The position numbers and the translations under genes were made by a program. Shown here piece by piece: positions 15,397 to 25,150 of a DNA stretch of 25,475 nt; within the stretch, counting starts at the first letter, position 1; every line of letters begins with the position of its first letter. The DNA lies in UHGV virus genome UHGV-0146066; one strand, written 5' to 3'. Source of the stretch: a virus. The notes beneath the pieces are model-generated. The model was not told the DNA's origin and searched no databases. It worked only from the letters and a program-made list of their open reading frames with translations.

Positions 15397-17301
15397 TTAG
15401 AACGATGTTACCCAGCTACGGCCTCTATTTGGGCGTCTGGCGATGTTTTTACGTTGTGGTCGTGTGATTGGCTTATTTTCTTCGATTTGCTCGTCAGATT
15501 GCGATTTAGGAGCTTCTACGGGTTCTTCTGGTTCGCGGTTCAAACTATCTTTGATGGCTTCGAGTTTTTCCCATGACATTTTATTGAGTACATGGCGAGA
15601 AGCAGCATAGGAATAAGCCAGGCAGTCGAGAGCCTCGTTTCGTTGCTGACCAACTTTTACCCAACGTGTGGTATTACCCTGCCGTTTCAACTGTTCAGAT
15701 AACAATTGTTCGCAGTAGTCATCAGGAACGTCACCAATCTGGAAGACCGTATGAGGATCGCTGTCTCTCAAGTTCCGGTTAATCATTTCACGGATCATCG
15801 TCTTAAGGTTGTTTACGCCCAGAATTTTAAGAGTAAAACCACCCGTTCTTGTGTCCTTGACCGGAAGGATTGGAGCATCAACATTGCTTGCCCCTTTAAT
15901 GGCGCATAGGTTTTGCCACCTAGTGCAGAAGCGATAGATCACGTTTGTAGCTCGTCCGTTCGATGAGTCCACGAAAGCAGATAGCATCGGGATTCGTTGA
16001 CCTGATCGGGTATAGAATTTAGCTTTCAGGAAGTTGTAAAGCTGGTCATATGCTGGCGATTCGTGGCGTTCGCAGTTCACATCATAGAATGATCGGTGAT
16101 CAACTACGCATATCCCCTTACGAGAGATACCCAGCAAGGTAGATTCCAGACGGTCTTTTTGCTGGTCAACTCCACCTACCAGAGCCAGAACATCATCAGG
16201 AATATTATCTAAGCTAATGTCAGTTTTCAGCGTTTCCAGTTCGTCGGCTGTGCGGTCTTCGTTAAGATCATCGAAGGTTTCACCGAGCACCACATTATAG
16301 AACGTTGCCAGTGACATATTCGCGTAGCTATCAGCAAAGTCCACCACACACGCACGGATAGAACTAAACGGAGACATAAGGCGGTTAGCATGAAAACCGA
16401 TTACTTCCGCATTTGGTTCGGTGGCGACCCATTCTCCCTGAGCAACAGCACGGAGGCGATCTGGTTCTGACCAATCAGTTTCACATGACGGGCAACGGTA
16501 AACGGCTGTGTCTGGATTCGGCAGTGATTTACCATTGATTACATGCCAATCAAAGAATACTCTACTCCATTCCATTACGTGTTTGTGTCCGCAATGCTGG
16601 CAAACGACGTGGTATTTTCTTTTATCCGAGAGTTCCCATTGTTGGTTTATCGCCCCATCCCGCGAAGTTGGAGTAGAAGCAATTACGATCCTTGCATCAT
16701 CACCGAAAGTGGTTGCGCGTTGTTCCGCTAGCTGGATCGGGTTCCCTTCGTCTGACTCATCAGCCGCATCAACTTCATCCAGAATAATCAAAGGCAGTGT
16801 CTTACCGCGCAAGTGTGATGGACTGTTCAGCGACATGAAATACATGAATGATCCGTTACGAAGCTGAATAATCGATGAGTTGTTAACGGCATTGCGATCT
16901 GATTTGTCGGTGATCATCGCCTTTAATTCTGGGGTTGCCTCTAATACTGGCTTCACCTTACCCGCAATCCATGAGTTCAATTCTCGAACGTTCGCTTGCA
17001 AAACACCGATATTAGTAGGGTTACTGGCGATCCTGTGAAAGATAATACCGTTTAGCACAAGAGTTTTACCCAACTGTGCCGAGCACTTTAGCACAATTTT
17101 TCGCCTATCTTCGGTGATCGCGTCCATCATTCCACGTTGGAAGGGATGCAACTTAATTAGAGATCCGGCTTTAACACCATCGGTTGCAACTACATTAGCC
17201 TCTACCCATTCGCTAGGTTTCATCGTTTTAGGTGGGCGAATTGCCGCAGAGATATTTTTAAGAATCTTTTTTAATTTGGCCTTATTAGAAATCAGTTTCA
17301 T
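15397..17301 (-). CDS. Terminase large subunit, lambda gpA family, 634 aa
   Basis: N-terminus IRPPKTMKPSEWVEANVV resembles gpA RPEPQTAVEWADANYY. Also IKGASNVDAPILPV versus gpA IKGASVYGKPV, and RNEALDCLAYSYAA versus RNEALDCFVYALAA. GAGGGT Shine-Dalgarno. Confidence 0.85.
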   Translation of the reverse strand: MKLISNKAKLKKILKNISAAIRPPKTMKPSEWVEANVVATDGVKAGSLIKLHPFQRGMMDAITEDRRKIVLKCSAQLGKTLVLNGIIFHRIASNPTNIGVLQANVRELNSWIAGKVKPVLEATPELKAMITDKSDRNAVNNSSIIQLRNGSFMYFMSLNSPSHLRGKTLPLIILDEVDAADESDEGNPIQLAEQRATTFGDDARIVIASTPTSRDGAINQQWELSDKRKYHVVCQHCGHKHVMEWSRVFFDWHVINGKSLPNPDTAVYRCPSCETDWSEPDRLRAVAQGEWVATEPNAEVIGFHANRLMSPFSSIRACVVDFADSYANMSLATFYNVVLGETFDDLNEDRTADELETLKTDISLDNIPDDVLALVGGVDQQKDRLESTLLGISRKGICVVDHRSFYDVNCERHESPAYDQLYNFLKAKFYTRSGQRIPMLSAFVDSSNGRATNVIYRFCTRWQNLCAIKGASNVDAPILPVKDTRTGGFTLKILGVNNLKTMIREMINRNLRDSDPHTVFQIGDVPDDYCEQLLSEQLKRQGNTTRWVKVGQQRNEALDCLAYSYAASRHVLNKMSWEKLEAIKDSLNREPEEPVEAPKSQSDEQIEENKPITRPQRKNIARRPNRGRSWVTSF

Positions 17302-19960: not shown

Positions 19961-20503
19961 AGTGGAAATCCTCTAAAAGAAAGTGAATCAATCTAATATT
20001 ATTTATAAAGAGAAAATTCTTGTTATTATGAAAAGAGTGATCTGGTAGAGTCCAAAACTGGTCTGTACTTGAAAGATGATTGGATTCAGTCGGGCTAAAG
20101 CCCCCCTTCATAGATTTGATTAAATCATCATCAAAACGAAGAAGTATCTTTAGAATATAAGAATCTTTCTTTTGAAGAAATAATAATCAGGAAGCAATTT
20201 AGCAACCGAAGGTTGCAATCCCGAAGGGATACCAATACCTTTCTAGAAATTGATTGTTACTCACTTCGTTCGTTTACTAGAATCAGTTAGTAACTAGTAT
20301 TAAATCCCTTTCGAATCCTGCTTGCAGGTCTTAGAAGGTGTTGGTGGGCGCTACGCGCACGGCTACGCCGTATTCTTTTTGCGAGATCTTTCTTGAACGT
20401 AGTGAGAGAAAGCGAGCAAAAAGGAGAACGTTAGTTCGAATTTTATATTCTATGGTCTGTGGGGTATAATACCTTTCAAGGTCATACACTTACGTGATTG
20501 AAG

Positions 20504-20622
20504 TGTAGGGTTAGTGTAGGTGTGTAGGTTTCATAGTGTAGGTTTGAGGGTGTTATAGTGTAGGTTTACTGGCTAGTGTAGTGTAGGCCAATCCCTTTAA
20601 AGGGTAGGTGTGTAGTGTAGGT
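20504..20622 (+). repeat. Array of at least 7 direct GTGTAGG(TTT) repeats (iteron-like)
   Basis: GTGTAGG at 20504, 20515, 20523, 20537, 20559, 20582 and 20616, plus GTGTAGT variants, with irregular spacing. No ORF on either strand. Confidence 0.75.
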
Positions 20623-20818
20623 TTTCAATCAAAAATTTTGACAAAAAATTCTTGTATATTATTCAACCAAAAAACCACCAAAAATAGATGTAAATTCATG
20701 ATTTAAAAGAAATTTTCAAAAGATCTCCGTGCCATATAAGGTTTAAAAGGTTGATAATCATTATTTGCCATTTTCAAACAAAAATTTTGATACACCTTTC
20801 TCGCTTAGATCATGAATG

Positions 20819-20847
20819 TTGACATGTGTCAAGAACTATTTTATACT
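20819..20847 (+). promoter_or_regulatory. Strong sigma70 consensus-like promoter (TTGACA, 17-bp spacer, TATACT)
   Basis: -35 at 20819-20824 and -10 at 20842-20847, in an AT-rich context. Predicted start near 20854. Confidence 0.65.
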
Positions 20848-20853
20848 TTTTAT

Positions 20854-21013
20854 CCTTGGTAGGGGTTGAAATTTTCCAAACAATCCCCATATAGATGATA
20901 AGCATGATTTTTCGTGTATAAATACAATGCATGAAAAATGATTGTTCACTTCTGAAAATCCCTTGACTAACTGTTAATTCATACAGCACTGGTTAGATAT
21001 GCAGTGCTTTTTC
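20854..21013 (+). ncRNA. Candidate ~160-nt small RNA or leader transcript between the strong promoter and the first terminator
   Basis: Bounded by the promoter at 20819-20847 and the terminator at 20986-21013. Only an 8-codon ORF without a Shine-Dalgarno lies inside. Confidence 0.3.
20986..21013 (+). terminator. Intrinsic terminator (7-bp stem AGCACUG/CAGUGCU, then U5)
   Basis: Stem 20986-20992 pairs with 21003-21009; T-run 21009-21013. Confidence 0.6.
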
Positions 21014-21136
21014 GGTCGAATATTGTACGAATTGATTAATTATCAATCTTCTCTTTAGCAATTCGTGCTCCCACTGATCGGATATACAGTTGTTTTACAG
21101 AGTTTTTGAAAATCATTTTTATAAATAGAATTGTTC

Positions 21137-21156
21137 AGAGCGAAAAGCTCTTTTTT
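21137..21156 (+). terminator. Short hairpin with GAAAA pentaloop and U6 (terminator/attenuator; boxB-like architecture)
   Basis: AGAGC-GAAAA-GCUCU followed by TTTTTT, 35 nt upstream of the ATG at 21192. No promoter lies between it and the operon. Confidence 0.5.
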
Positions 21157-21191
21157 AAGGAATTATTAATCCACATGTGAGGAATCGATTT

Positions 21192-21487: not shown

Positions 21488-22501
21488 ATGAAAAATTCTA
21501 AGCGCATCACCTTCAACCTATTCATCAAATCCAACGGCAAACTGAACATTACCGTTATGGAAGGTAAAGCAAGCAAACAAGACAAATCCTTTGAAGTAGT
21601 ATCCGGTAAGACTCTGACCGAAATGCGTCAGAATGCTGGCATCAAAGACGGTGCTGAATGGCAGATCACTAACCGTTTCGACAAACGTCACGTTAAACCT
21701 ACACTGGTAGAAGGTGAATCCGTTTATTGCTTCGCTCGTGCTGTTAAAGCCGATGAAACTTACTATCTCGCTGTTATTAAAACTGCTTCCGGCTTCCGTG
21801 CTGTAATGCATCACAAGAGCAAGCGTAACGAATACGGCGTAGAGACCCAGGAAGTTGCAAAACGCTTCCGTACTGTTGCTACTGAATCCACTGTAAAGGA
21901 TGTTTCTGGTACTGTTAACACCGCTAAAGGCGGTTCCTTCTACAACCACGCATTACAGGTTACTTCCTCCTTCTTCTGCAAAAAAGAAGCACAGAAAGAA
22001 GTTGCTCCGGTAGTAGTTGAAGAAGTTAAAGAAGAAGTTGCAGTGGTTGAATCTTCCGAAGTTGAAGCACTGAAAGCACGCATTGCTGAACTGGAAGCTG
22101 AAAACGCATCTCTGAAAGCTGAACTGGCAGCGCAGGAAACCACTTTCGAAGTAGCAGCGGTTGAAGTTGAAGCAGTTGAAGAAAAATCCATTGATGAAGA
22201 ACTGGAAGAACTCCTTAACTATCGCTGGGGTAACGGTGAAAAAGTAGGACAGGAAGAACAGAAAGAAGCTGATCCGGTAGTAGTTCCGGTTGAAGAAAAA
22301 TCCGCACCTGTTACTAACTTTGAATCCCTGCGCAATAACTTTATGGCTAAATTCAAAACCACTTGGGAAGATACCGAAGAAGAACAAGAAGAGATTGAAG
22401 TAAACGAAGACGAGATCCGCGAAGCACAGATGGCACTGCATGACGCTATCTATGACACCAACTACAGCGCCTACGCCTACGCCTACGCCTACGCAGCTTA
22501 A
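21488..22501 (+). CDS. Abundant-looking acidic coiled-coil protein ending in SAYAYAYAYAA, 337 aa
   Basis: AGGAG Shine-Dalgarno 8 nt upstream. Codon choice looks biased toward common E. coli codons. Acidic, coiled-coil C-terminal half. No domain recognised. Confidence 0.65.
   Translation: MKNSKRITFNLFIKSNGKLNITVMEGKASKQDKSFEVVSGKTLTEMRQNAGIKDGAEWQITNRFDKRHVKPTLVEGESVYCFARAVKADETYYLAVIKTASGFRAVMHHKSKRNEYGVETQEVAKRFRTVATESTVKDVSGTVNTAKGGSFYNHALQVTSSFFCKKEAQKEVAPVVVEEVKEEVAVVESSEVEALKARIAELEAENASLKAELAAQETTFEVAAVEVEAVEEKSIDEELEELLNYRWGNGEKVGQEEQKEADPVVVPVEEKSAPVTNFESLRNNFMAKFKTTWEDTEEEQEEIEVNEDEIREAQMALHDAIYDTNYSAYAYAYAYAA
22469..22492 (+). repeat. Hexanucleotide microsatellite (GCCTAC)x4 encoding the C-terminal (AY)4
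   Basis: Four perfect tandem GCCTAC units immediately before GCAGCTTAA at the end of the 337-aa ORF. Confidence 0.9.
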
Positions 22502-22852: not shown

Positions 22853-22882
22853 AGCCAGAAAAATAACCGCCCCGAAGGGCGG
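22853..22882 (-). terminator. Intrinsic terminator of the minus-strand small-terminase / small-peptide unit
   Basis: CCGCCC-CGAA-GGGCGG hairpin at 22867-22882, followed on the minus strand by UUAUUUUUCU. Confidence 0.6.
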
Positions 22883-23040
22883 GAGGATTAATACTCAATC
22901 TATACTTGTTATGTTTTTGTGTTGTATAGATCACTGACTATGAAAACACTGTACTGGAGTGTGTTTTATGGCTTTTAATCGGGAATCCTCAAAGAAGATC
23001 CCCTGTTAATAACCATAAGGAGAAAAGGCAGATTACACTA

Positions 23041-23214
23041 TTATTTAGTATCCTTTTTACAGCAACTAAAAAGAATAAACAGGATTAAGCATACCCAGCC
23101 GTAAGGCGTACCGATTAGAAATTTGAAAAACACCACCAGCGATATAAAAATCAATTTAATGCCAGCGACGATAGTCAAAAACAGCAGAGTAGCAAAGTAG
23201 ACAAAAAGATCCAT
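23041..23214 (-). CDS. Small hydrophobic membrane protein not in the ORF track, 57 aa (holin-like or toxin-like)
   Basis: Strong AGAGGA Shine-Dalgarno 8 nt upstream of ATG. Hand translation MDLFVYFATLLFLTIVAGIKLIFISLVVFFKFLIGTPYGWVCLILFILFSCCKKDTK has two hydrophobic segments and a charged C-terminus. Confidence 0.5.
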   Translation of the reverse strand: MDLFVYFATLLFLTIVAGIKLIFISLVVFFKFLIGTPYGWVCLILFILFSCCKKDTK

Positions 23215-23267
23215 AGATAATCCTCTTTGAAAACGACCATCATCTATAGTTCAATTCATCGATTTAA

Positions 23268-23369
23268 TTAATGATACTTGAAAGCGTTACACACAGTAGA
23301 AATGCCAATGTGAGCAAGTGAATATACGATAGTTAATCCTACAGCCAGATAAATCAAAAATTCAACCAT
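23268..23369 (-). CDS. Small hydrophobic peptide not in the ORF track, 33 aa
   Basis: GAGGA Shine-Dalgarno 7 nt upstream of ATG. Hand translation MVEFLIYLAVGLTIVYSLAHIGISTVCNAFKYH has one hydrophobic segment. Confidence 0.4.
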   Translation of the reverse strand: MVEFLIYLAVGLTIVYSLAHIGISTVCNAFKYH

Positions 23370-23399
23370 AGGTAAATCCTCAAATAAGAAAAAGGTTAG

Positions 23400-23418
23400 C
23401 GGGGGATGTTCTCCCCCG
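23400..23418 (-). other. Stem-loop CGGGGGA-N5-TCCCCCG downstream of the small terminase gene
   Basis: Perfect 7-bp inverted repeat. A U-rich tract begins 6 nt after it on the minus strand. Confidence 0.4.
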
Positions 23419-23469
23419 TAGACGTTGACCAGCTCAACATCCTTCACGTATATGTTTAGTATCTAATTT

Positions 23470-24024
23470 TTAAGACACATCAAATTCATCGTCTTCTTCT
23501 GGTTCTTGTTCCGGTTCATCCATTAATGCTAATTCTTCTTCCTCGTCTTCTCCCAAATCTGCATTTTCGAACAAGTCCCCTACTTCATTTAAACGACGTT
23601 CGATGATCTCCCTTAGCTTATTCTTCAATGTTTTCTGATCAGTGGCGGATTCTAAAATTTCTAGGGCATCGATCGTACAAATCTGCAAAATAGTCTGTTT
23701 CACTTTCCCGCAGTATTCCGCTAGTTCCTGTTCTACATAACCGACAGGAATCAGGAGATTCATTTTTTCCTGGTTCTCTCGTTCGGCTGCATCTGCCAAA
23801 GCACGTTCACGGCGTAATTTCTCTACGTCGATTTGTTCTTTGATAGAAGTTTGTTTAAGCGGGTTGATAATATTTTTCAAGACCCATTCTGTTCCTTCTT
23901 TGGCTGGCACGCGGCGGGTATTGGTGTTAAATGGCAATCCCCTTTCTAACCATCGCTTACCGCCACCATTCAATGTATAGCCATATAAACGGGAAATTTC
24001 TGTAAGGGTTAATTCTTCTTTCAT
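23470..24024 (-). CDS. Terminase small subunit, lambda Nu1-like, 184 aa
   Basis: N-terminal LTLTEISRLYGYTLNGGGKRWLERGLPF and EKLRRE resemble remembered Nu1 segments LADIFGASIRTIQNWQEQGMPV, GGGK and EKLRRE. Acidic C-terminus. Strong GGAGGA Shine-Dalgarno. Confidence 0.5.
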   Translation of the reverse strand: MKEELTLTEISRLYGYTLNGGGKRWLERGLPFNTNTRRVPAKEGTEWVLKNIINPLKQTSIKEQIDVEKLRRERALADAAERENQEKMNLLIPVGYVEQELAEYCGKVKQTILQICTIDALEILESATDQKTLKNKLREIIERRLNEVGDLFENADLGEDEEEELALMDEPEQEPEEDDEFDVS

Positions 24025-24148
24025 TGGTTATCCTCCATTAAATTTGCGTAATTTTATTTATTGGTTTTACGCACAATCTAAGCGCCTAAATCGCATTCTA
24101 ACGAAGGGAAAGATCCAGTAATGGTAAGGGTTAGGAAGTGGGTTAATA

Positions 24149-24167
24149 GTCGCGTAGCGACCGCGCC
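24149..24167. other. GC-rich partially palindromic element GTCGCGTAGCGACCGCGCC upstream of the small terminase gene (possible cos/pac-related site)
   Basis: GTCGC-GTA-GCGAC inverted repeat plus CGCGCC, in an otherwise AT-rich intergenic region about 125 bp upstream of the gene. Only loosely resembles lambda cosN. Confidence 0.2.
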
Positions 24168-24382
24168 ATAAGTGAAGTGATCACGTTTTAGAATCTCACA
24201 CGCACATCAAATACCGGGGTGCCGAAAACTCCCTTTATTTCATCCATGGAACAGTACCTTTTTAATTTGTCAAGTATTAATTTCTTAATTTAATTACTAA
24301 ATCTCACCCCAATAATTGAAAAAATATCAAAAATCAATAAAGTAAGCATCTAAAAGTCAGTCCATACCAAAAGAGGTATAAA

Positions 24383-25150
24383 ATGAAAAACATTATCGCT
24401 GCTATCATGCTTTCTGCTACTGCTTTCGGTGCTGATGCTGCGTCCTTTGATTGCACTAAGGCTACTACCAAATCAGAGAAGTTTATTTGTGCTAATGAGT
24501 CAATCTCCGCACTGGATTCTAAACTTCATGAAGTATATGTTAAGGCTGTTAAGATTAATCCGTCTCTTAAACAAGAGCAACGTAACTGGAATAAAACTGT
24601 TCGTGACACAATGATCAATATCGGGCAGATTCAGCCACTGGAGGCTGTATACAACGCTCAAATCCAAAACTTGATGAATGTATTATCTAAAGAAGAAACC
24701 GCGTCAGGGAGCGTTTCAGAGACTTCTGCGAAGGTTGAAGAAGAACAACCGAAACAGGAAGAAAAAGTGGTGGAAGAACCGAAGGTTGAAGATAAACCAA
24801 AAGGATTTACCGGAGACATGACATTGCAATGCGATGTTCACTATAGCTGGGAAATCCAAGACGGGGTAGAAACAAAAGCAGTTAAAGACATTGGCTATCC
24901 TCGTTATAACTCTGGTGAACTTAAACTTAAAGTAAAAGACGGGGAAATTATTGAATTTGTGTATCGTGATAATTATGACGCGCATAAAGCAAAGACAAAA
25001 ACAGTGACGCATCAGAATGGCGCAATGCAATATGAAGGCCAAGTGGATAACAAAAAATATTATGTGTGGCGTGATAATCAAGATATGATTCGCTTAGAAG
25101 TACATAAAAAATATTCAAGAACATACATTGACCAGTACGGGTGCAAATAA
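24383..25150 (+). CDS. Secreted protein with N-terminal DUF1311 / LprI-like domain, 255 aa
   Basis: Sec-type signal peptide MKNIIAAIMLSATAFGADA. FDCTKATTKSEKFICANESISALDSKLHEVYVKAV fits the remembered DUF1311 pattern. AAGAGG Shine-Dalgarno. Confidence 0.55.
   Translation: MKNIIAAIMLSATAFGADAASFDCTKATTKSEKFICANESISALDSKLHEVYVKAVKINPSLKQEQRNWNKTVRDTMINIGQIQPLEAVYNAQIQNLMNVLSKEETASGSVSETSAKVEEEQPKQEEKVVEEPKVEDKPKGFTGDMTLQCDVHYSWEIQDGVETKAVKDIGYPRYNSGELKLKVKDGEIIEFVYRDNYDAHKAKTKTVTHQNGAMQYEGQVDNKKYYVWRDNQDMIRLEVHKKYSRTYIDQYGCK

Follow-up and report, generated by a model that had tools for sequence, protein, structure and literature searches.

What are two very small, hydrophobic open reading frames (ORFs) doing behind a phage packaging gene, and are they genes at all? 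The question arises in UHGV virus genome UHGV-0146066, a 25,475-nucleotide stretch of DNA (hereafter the window), in which ORFs of 33 and 57 codons, called here ORF33 and ORF57, follow a putative gene for the small terminase subunit (terS). An original prediction, made from the letters of the DNA, had singled them out as possible holins or antiholins, type I toxin-like peptides, or membrane-acting superinfection exclusion or defence factors. The analyses presented here make it very likely that both ORFs are translated, and they represent two orphan small-protein families, each limited to one enterobacterial prophage lineage. They also revealed three features that the prediction did not include: the slot behind terS is always filled yet allelically replaced, the order of the two genes is swapped in Salmonella, and RNA structures flank the ORFs. 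Of the possible roles, a holin-like function in lysis timing is tentatively favoured.

Two probable genes behind terS

Both ORFs are present and very hydrophobic, as had been predicted, and each is preceded by a Shine-Dalgarno (SD) sequence, 6 nt upstream of the ATG for ORF57 and 7 nt for ORF33 (Table 1). ORF33 is nested in a longer ORF with a GTG start that reaches position 23447. This upstream extension is not conserved, since its frame and length vary by strain (59, 56/57 or 83 aa), which identifies the ATG behind the SD as the true start of ORF33.

The comparison within Escherichia coli covered 32 loci, representing 22 distinct sequences that carry the cassette of 33 plus 57 codons. Among these sequences, insertions and deletions are confined to the non-coding parts, namely the terS-ORF33 spacer, the 3' untranslated region (3'UTR) and the terminator, with none in either ORF. 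Variable sites at codon positions 1, 2 and 3 number 4, 1 and 8 in ORF33 and 6, 4 and 13 in ORF57. The ratio of non-synonymous to synonymous polymorphism (pN/pS) is 0.19 for ORF33 and 0.25 for ORF57 in frame, and 0.47-10.7 in the shifted frames. No version of either ORF contains a premature stop. The SD sequences and ATG codons are invariant or nearly so: the ORF57 SD does not vary, and the 24 nt through the ATG of ORF33 are identical in 22 of the 22 variants. The most conserved stretch of the locus is the ORF33-ORF57 spacer, in which only 2 of 53 columns are variable.

Salmonella relatives, whose terS is 54-70% identical, harbour homologues of both proteins in reversed gene order. There, the first SD-preceded ORF 3' of terS codes for 59 or 60 residues (MFEFIF...GW...KKKDTK, or ending in GKGNKGKRNK), and the second, also SD-preceded, for 33 residues (MFDFLIYLAGALTVSYL...). 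Between E. coli and Salmonella, composition-preserving shuffles gave z scores of 8-10 for the 33-aa proteins and of 3.3-4.2 for the 57/59/60-aa proteins. Protein-level homology despite a nucleotide identity of only 58% between the 33-aa genes indicates that both proteins were kept across genera while their order was reversed.

One might argue instead that the ORFs are untranslated and that the conserved element is a structured RNA in which the reading frames are incidental. It is true that the conserved RNA structures on either side of the ORFs covary and that the 3'UTR has a far more stable fold than its shuffled versions. Nevertheless, frame-specific purifying selection with its third-position excess, the absence of indels from the ORFs when the flanks have many, the near-constant SD and ATG signals, and a conservation in Salmonella that holds for the proteins rather than the DNA of rearranged genes make this the most improbable of all the explanations considered. 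The original prediction had made its case dependent on conservation in related genomes, and on this point purifying selection and the Salmonella homologues bear it out.

The ORFs had also been described as unannotated. This is correct for the PGAP/RefSeq annotation of strains C325 and H2, the two complete genomes checked, which misses both of these real genes; other pipelines list both proteins as 'hypothetical' or 'putative membrane protein', and in that sense databases do hold them.

Predicted products and database searches

The two proteins have grand average of hydropathy (GRAVY) values of 1.61 and 1.22. Based on hydropathy, ORF33 harbours one hydrophobic segment; its N-terminus is acidic (MVE), its C-terminus basic (KYH), and its predicted topology is N-out/C-in. 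In ORF57, a long hydrophobic segment (approximately residues 2-32) and a short one of 13 residues (40-52) are separated by a G-T-P-Y-G-W turn and followed by the basic tail KKDTK. The AlphaFold2 model of ORF57 consists of one long helix that is confident only over residues 1-30, with a predicted local distance difference test score of at least 89 given for helix residues 2-32; as a single long helix, it was of no help as a guide to topology. The single segment attributed to ORF33 in the original prediction thus agrees with the hydropathy analysis, and the two transmembrane (TM) segments attributed to ORF57 are plausible, the structural model being confident for the first of them only.

No significant match was found for any cassette allele in Pfam, PHROGs, NCBIfam or PADLOC. 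The holin families of Pfam, PHROGs and NCBIfam returned nothing for ORF33, ORF57 or any of the sister alleles described below, even at E<=1, and at a threshold of 0.01 PHROGs and Pfam yielded no hit. PADLOC gave no hit for ORF33, ORF57 or the 94-aa allele, PHROGs no significant match to superinfection exclusion (Sie) or defence proteins, and Pfam and NCBIfam none to the Hok, Ldr, TisB, Ibs, ShoB, Zor, DinQ or Fst toxin families. Thus, the searches assigned the proteins to none of the holin, type I toxin or defence families that had been suggested for them. A phmmer search with ORF57 against 1.84 billion representative sequences retrieved its own cluster only, and its relatives in a word-indexed search were E. 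coli proteins at least 93% identical to it. Similarly, the profile of the 94/92-aa allele matched only E. coli hypothetical proteins, and a scan of genome contigs with a terS profile found nothing.

A slot that is always filled

In every close relative (~50 loci in three genera), the interval from terS to the terminator contains a small hydrophobic ORF behind a strong SD, and the fillings of this slot are largely unrelated in sequence. The E. coli cassette of the window, cassette A, codes for the pair of 33 and 57 aa. Cassette B codes for one protein of 94 aa, predicted to be N-out/C-in, in which three segments are hydrophobic, and a relative of it for a 92-aa protein, 42% identical and also with three hydrophobic segments. 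Salmonella has the pair of 59/60 and 33 aa in swapped order, and the Proteus filling is a 74-aa protein with two hydrophobic segments.

We considered the pair of 33 and 57 aa as a split version of the 94-aa protein and rejected this idea, as shuffle-controlled z scores ranged from -0.3 to 1.5 and the hhalign probability was <2%. The resemblance between cassettes A and B is architectural only. The sole piece common to both is a C-terminal K-x-T-K, which they have in common because the conserved 3' DNA flank starts inside the last codons. In the window, this flank begins within the end of ORF57 (GAT ACT AAA TAA TAGTGTAAT), and its general form is GAT/CAG ACT AAA TAA TAnTGTAAT. In E. coli, a junction motif, AAATAAT(A/T)nTGT(A/C)AT, stands behind the stop codon of the last small ORF; in Salmonella, it comes after both, an indication that the 33-aa gene is mobile as a mini-cassette. 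The motif may be a recombination joint that shuffles mini-genes. With its swapped order and always-filled slot, the locus offers a tidy example of small membrane-protein genes evolving as cassettes.

Transcription and flanking RNA structures

ORF33 lies on the same strand as terS, after a gap of 100 nt that contains two hairpins. In an alignment of 21 distinct sequences (alignment A4), 98% of the cells of hairpin 1 are paired, with compensatory double changes at two pairs, and its U.G pair is retained in 20 of the 21 sequences, as would be expected of an RNA transcribed in the coding sense. Hairpin 2 has 100% of its cells paired and compensatory changes at three pairs. For the two helices together, 99% of cells are paired and five pairs show double changes; none of 500 shuffles match this, and slid controls are at most 61% paired. 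Both hairpins are part of the minimum-free-energy fold and are maintained across E. coli and Salmonella, and Proteus has different sequences at these positions that still form hairpins. The U-rich run begins 6 nt downstream of hairpin 2, and Salmonella has no U-tract; hairpin 2 is thus not a canonical terminator. The hairpins may stabilise the mRNA, mark a site for its processing or act as an attenuator. The loop of hairpin 2 is inverted in one relative (L038). In two independent loci, insertion sequence (IS) elements are found at the identical place inside hairpin 2 (L015 2400-3760 and L037 1694-1790), which suggests that it is a hotspot for their insertion.

Downstream of the ORFs, a structured 3'UTR is common to all E. 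coli cassette types. It folds at -57.4 kcal/mol (z -5.3), and none of 200 shuffles folds as well. The covariation of its long hairpin is moderate, with 82% of cells paired and five pairs with double changes, and the register is uncertain in Salmonella. A second hairpin, of 9 bp, stands in the 3'UTR ahead of the terminator. This region could give rise to a 3'UTR-derived RNA or act as a stabiliser. The intrinsic terminator was located where the original prediction had placed it, with a stem at 22882-22867 and a U-run (TTATTTTTCT) on the minus strand. The E. coli and Salmonella relatives conserve it, with some variation in the stem.

A scan of three variants for the sigma-70 consensus detected no promoter in the interval from terS to the cassette, but it is a low-powered scan that misses the terS promoter as well. 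Many relatives have a conserved TTATAAATA box 3' of the terS stop codon, which is absent from the window. Of the transcription unit shared with terS that had been proposed, the common strand is therefore established; co-transcription is an inference, with two covarying hairpins in between.

These data also bear on the idea of a type I toxin-antitoxin system, in which one or both ORFs would code for membrane-depolarising toxins silenced by an antisense RNA. In size and hydrophobicity, the proteins do resemble the Hok, TisB, Ldr, Fst and GhoT peptides, and some such systems are known to be prophage-borne. Nevertheless, neither protein matches a toxin family in Pfam or NCBIfam, and Rfam yielded no family at gathering thresholds, its only matches in the locus region being at chance level. 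We found no plus-strand terminator over the locus that could end an antisense transcript, and two promoter-like sites (one weak, on the plus strand) where 5.9 were expected. Moreover, tandem ORFs with strong SD sequences 100 nt behind a gene of the same strand are unlike free-standing toxin loci. We thus consider a type I system very unlikely, and it is the weakest of the roles that had been put forward, given that no antisense RNA signal was detected.

A tentative role in lysis timing

Our working interpretation, held tentatively, is that ORF33 and ORF57 form a holin-like lysis-timing pair that acts in the lytic cycle. We rank it first by a narrow margin, marginally above superinfection exclusion or conflict. 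Transcription of both ORFs would start at the terS promoter and run on past the two hairpins, so that their products would be made during lytic growth. ORF33 would insert with its N-terminus out and its C-terminus in, and ORF57 would adopt a helical-hairpin fold with a cytoplasmic basic tail. In the inner membrane, the pair would function jointly as one unit with three hydrophobic segments and would gate or tune the release of the signal-less M15 endolysin. We liken this putative mode of action to that of the mycobacteriophage lysis regulators with two plus one TM segments, which are sometimes encoded away from the endolysin.

Several features are consistent with this proposal. The common strand, the lack of a predicted promoter between terS and the cassette, and hairpins without an adjacent U-tract argue for expression in the lytic cycle. 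No close relative leaves the slot empty, suggesting a core function whose sequence can vary freely, like that of holins. The proteins are small, with one plus two hydrophobic segments, the sister protein of the slot has three, and sequence diversity is extreme at a fixed genomic position. The M15 endolysin has neither a signal sequence nor a signal-anchor-release (SAR) sequence, and neither a recognised holin nor a lipoprotein spanin was found beside it. In one complete prophage, ORF33 and ORF57 are the only pair of SD-preceded, strongly hydrophobic ORFs in the unannotated gaps.

A number of observations weigh against a role in lysis. Some concern the proteins themselves: beyond the lack of matches to holin families, their charged C-terminal tails comprise only 5-10 residues (KKDTK, RDMFKKKDTK, GKGNKGKRNK), no dual-start motif was found, and the last codons of the tail lie within the conserved 3' flank of unrelated alleles, so that the tail is not independently selected. 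Others concern the setting. The co-transcription with terS on which the proposal depends is itself inferred. The M15 endolysin is encoded past the tail genes, at the opposite end of the prophage map; as had been stated, no endolysin is present in the window. Upstream of the peptidase gene, in the same late operon, are encoded a 92-aa protein with one TM segment, a coiled coil and a predicted N-out/C-in topology, and a 56-aa membrane protein, and these two could themselves be the holin pair. Unrelated cassette alleles swap within a backbone of ~90% identity, and the lysis-region proteins are 90-100% identical regardless of the cassette type. In a distant relative (L052, terS 44% identical), the terminator is directly 3' of terS and the cassette is absent. 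Finally, the cassette is surrounded by variable cargo genes; together with the replacement of its alleles, this is a pattern more typical of conflict or accessory loci.

The lysis region, which is outside the window (L054 9247-11338), is non-canonical: it codes for a signal-less M15 peptidase of 117 aa, and no candidate for a lipoprotein o-spanin was detected in it. We also looked for a link between cassette type and lysis-gene alleles, which was uninformative, as the lysis proteins have the same 90-100% identity either way.

Some of the same observations point to an accessory, moron-like conflict function, either superinfection exclusion by blocking DNA entry or another membrane-level immunity, for instance against a pore-forming toxin, with the alleles representing specificities. 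Unrelated alleles replace each other in a backbone of ~90-100% identity, and the att-proximal slot has variable cargo around it, including a secreted LprI-family protein, a CapR-like protein and unrelated ORFs. The cassette looks added, given that terS of the distant relative is directly followed by a terminator, and it has its own strong terminator. Known exclusion proteins are also small and located in the inner membrane; the literature search returned two reviews in this connection (PMC11436027, PMC10883804). Nevertheless, expression in the lysogen is unsupported, since no promoter is predicted from terS to the cassette in the three variants, and optional morons usually show presence or absence, whereas this slot is filled in all close relatives. 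PADLOC and PHROGs gave no match, and with 33 and 57 aa the proteins are below the size of the characterised Sie proteins. We consider such a function tentatively, as only marginally less likely than lysis timing.

As tentative as lysis timing is a third type of role, neither lysis timing nor exclusion but another function in the lytic cycle or in modulating the host, in which the proteins would for instance modulate a host membrane protein, transporter or sensor, or dissipate the membrane potential for host takeover. They are constrained, real genes with no family match, many bacterial proteins of <60 aa are known to bind larger membrane proteins, and the lysis region already has candidate membrane proteins of its own. 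On the other hand, nothing supports any specific target positively, and the replacement of alleles by non-homologous ones argues against a conserved specific partner.

If the two proteins do set lysis timing, they would be a new, very small two-component type of holin in a Gram-negative phage; if they mediate exclusion, the slot would hold a compact set of specificity alleles. A bolder, rather unlikely proposal is that the slot holds the missing holin of this prophage lineage in interchangeable forms, either a three-segment protein or a 'split holin' made of a one-segment and a two-segment protein, in free order and with the flanking hairpins setting the dosage relative to terS. It would imply a new holin family and a lysis gene within the packaging operon of an enterobacterial temperate phage.

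The terS gene and its leader

The upstream gene had been taken for the small terminase gene, and our searches support this assignment. Its 184-aa product matches phrog_57, 'terminase small subunit' (E 6e-11), nearly over its full length (residues 24-172), and residues 4-82 show weak Nu1-type profile matches to the TerS DNA-binding domains 6hn7, 1j9i and 7lw0 of the PDB (E 0.1-0.7). Pfam returned nothing for it. Homologues were found in E. coli, Salmonella and Proteus. This gene is the sole terS candidate, and it is 6 kb from the gpA-type terL gene (15397-17301). It belongs to a short unit of its own at the att end, and a regulatory region coding for Rha and several small helix-turn-helix (HTH) proteins separates it from terL, an unusual layout for a Nu1/gpA-type terminase.

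Conserved in the terS leader (window 24025-24382), which is also the spacer of the divergent LprI gene, are a perfect TTGACA with AGGTACT after it (24273-24253), a hairpin that shows covariation (24216-24232) and, just 5' of the terS SD, a TGCGTAA-N15-TTACGCA palindrome (24045-24073). All three are unique in the window. They point to regulated, possibly antitermination-type, expression. The palindrome (TGCG-N-TACGCA) and the TTGACA...AGGTACT box were considered as late-promoter motifs shared with terL; both are unique in the window and therefore uninformative on co-regulation of the two genes.

The prophage and its other genes

The two ORFs belong to an E. coli prophage of ~35 kb, of the serine-recombinase type and inserted in hicB; other copies adjoin ghrA-ycdX. 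Positions 22900-23480 of the window (581 bases searched) are 100% identical to the chromosome of E. coli C325. The cassette region was matched in 49 of 5426 complete E. coli genomes, every time in single copy and on the chromosome, and the exact ORF33 and ORF57 proteins are also found in several hundred blocks of a contig index built from draft assemblies and metagenomes. The complete copy of strain H2 starts with a large serine recombinase gene, followed by a short lysis region with the signal-less M15 peptidase, the tail, head and portal genes, the gpA-type terL and a 6-kb region for Rha and small HTH proteins. Last come the 184-aa gene, ORF33 and ORF57 and, at the att end in divergent orientation, a gene for a secreted LprI-family protein. 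The C325 copy is truncated by an IS3 element and a deletion.

This lineage is unexplored and has no isolated relative. Searches of 50,697 phage genomes by megablast, blastn and tblastn with the locus, terS and ORF57 found no isolated phage that resembles it, with the proviso that the low-complexity filter of BLAST may mask ORF57. The terL nearest to that of the prophage is 44% identical, and our literature search turned up no publication on prophages of this family or on hicB integration. Across the whole window and the complete copy L054 (NZ_CP028733.1 2523685-2558849), no recognisable repressor, replication, holin or spanin genes were detected.

Other observations concern the neighbourhood. 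At the prophage end, divergent from terS, the window codes for a secreted LprI-family, lysozyme-inhibitor-like protein (24383-25150, plus strand), and relatives carry other cargo at this position, namely a CapR-like protein and further unrelated ORFs. A 337-aa acidic coiled-coil protein (21488-22501, plus strand) ends in a Tyr-Ala repeat whose copy number varies by strain (SAYAYAYAYAA here, SAYAYAA in strain H2), and its length ranges from 309 to 351 aa across relatives. An iteron-like array of at least eight (A/G)GTGTAGG units, phased at 11 or 22 nt (20498-20621), is located in a 1.2-kb AT-rich non-coding region (ORF-poor 19961-21176) that separates a small HTH gene from a 155-aa gene. The array could be an origin of replication, or it could bind terS or a regulator.

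Table 1. Features of the terS-cassette locus. Positions refer to the window unless a locus is named.
Feature	Position	Strand	Description
terS candidate	23470..24024	-	184 aa, Nu1-like; N-terminal HTH, acidic C-terminal tail
Hairpin 1	23421..23441	-	terS-ORF33 spacer; GAUGUUGA-loop-UCAACGUC, 8-bp stem, conserved U.G pair
Hairpin 2	23400..23418	-	CGGGGGA-GAACA-UCCCCCG, 7-bp G+C-rich stem
ORF33 SD	23377..23381	-	GAGGA, 7 nt 5' of ATG
ORF33	23268..23369	-	33 aa, predicted single-pass membrane protein; MVEFLIYLAVGLTIVYSLAHIGISTVCNAFKYH
ORF33-ORF57 spacer	23215..23267	-	Holds ORF57 SD AGAGGA (23226-23221), 6 nt 5' of ATG
ORF57	23041..23214	-	57 aa, predicted membrane protein, ATG start; MDLFVYFATLLFLTIVAGIKLIFISLVVFFKFLIGTPYGWVCLILFILFSCCKKDTK
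Junction motif	23030-23050		
Junction motif, L024	3855-3895, 3985-4005		
Structured 3'UTR	22883..23040	-	Common to all E. coli cassette types; long interrupted hairpin ~23013-22961
Intrinsic terminator	22857..22882	-	Stem 22882-22867, CCGCCC-UUCG-GGGCGG, then UUAUUUUUCU

Comparison with known systems

Small phage membrane proteins are of a known kind, and our analyses give no evidence for a new kind of system. Among the classical holins, lambda S105 is a class I holin with three TM domains (TMDs) and phage 21 S68 a class II holin with two; in T7, the gene for the holin gp17.5 adjoins the terS gene 18. The cassette proteins resemble such holins in being small, putatively late membrane proteins with a basic cytoplasmic C-terminus, of unrelated sequences at one position in related phages. 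Three hydrophobic segments are present in the sister alleles of 92-94 aa, whose charge distribution suggests an N-out/C-in topology. In contrast with classical holins, the cassette proteins match no hidden Markov model, have a very short charged tail and no dual start, and are not encoded beside the endolysin; here there are also two polypeptides, whose order differs between genera.

T4 Imm, P22 SieA and HK97 gp15 are exclusion proteins that block DNA entry. They, too, are small phage inner-membrane proteins encoded in variable parts of the genome, with allelic diversity. They are single proteins of 83-160 aa, expressed early or from their own promoters in the lysogen, whereas we found no homology to them and no promoter here. 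Type I and type V toxins (Hok, TisB, LdrD, GhoT) are comparable in size, with 30-60 aa and one or two hydrophobic helices, GhoT having 57 aa and two TMDs. They differ from the present pair, for which we detected no sequence similarity to them and no antisense RNA or antitoxin partner, and which is found in an operon behind terS. Morons are called to mind by the extra DNA between terS and the terminator relative to the distant relative, by the cassette's own terminator, by the swappable alleles and by the nearby cargo, but no promoter of its own was detected for the cassette and the slot is never empty in close relatives.

A close parallel in architecture comes from lysis regulators of mycobacteriophages, in which a protein with two TMDs (N-in/C-in) cooperates with one that has a single TMD (N-out/C-in) (PMC13056207; bioRxiv 10.64898/2026.08.27.747656). 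The mycobacteriophage pairs belong to phages of another host phylum and are encoded in the lysis cassette or 3' of the tape measure gene, whereas ORF33 and ORF57 are in the terS unit; the comparison is one of architecture. LysF1a, with 88 aa, and LysF1b, with a single N-terminal TMD, compare with proteins of 57 and 33 aa here. As in the LysF1a/LysF1b pair of cluster F1 and the LysA2a/LysA2b pair of D29, a small protein with two TMDs is found with a one-TMD, N-out/C-in partner, an arrangement that is predicted for the present proteins, and in D29 the gene for the one-TMD partner is distant from that for the endolysin (PMC13056207; bioRxiv 10.64898/2026.08.27.747656).

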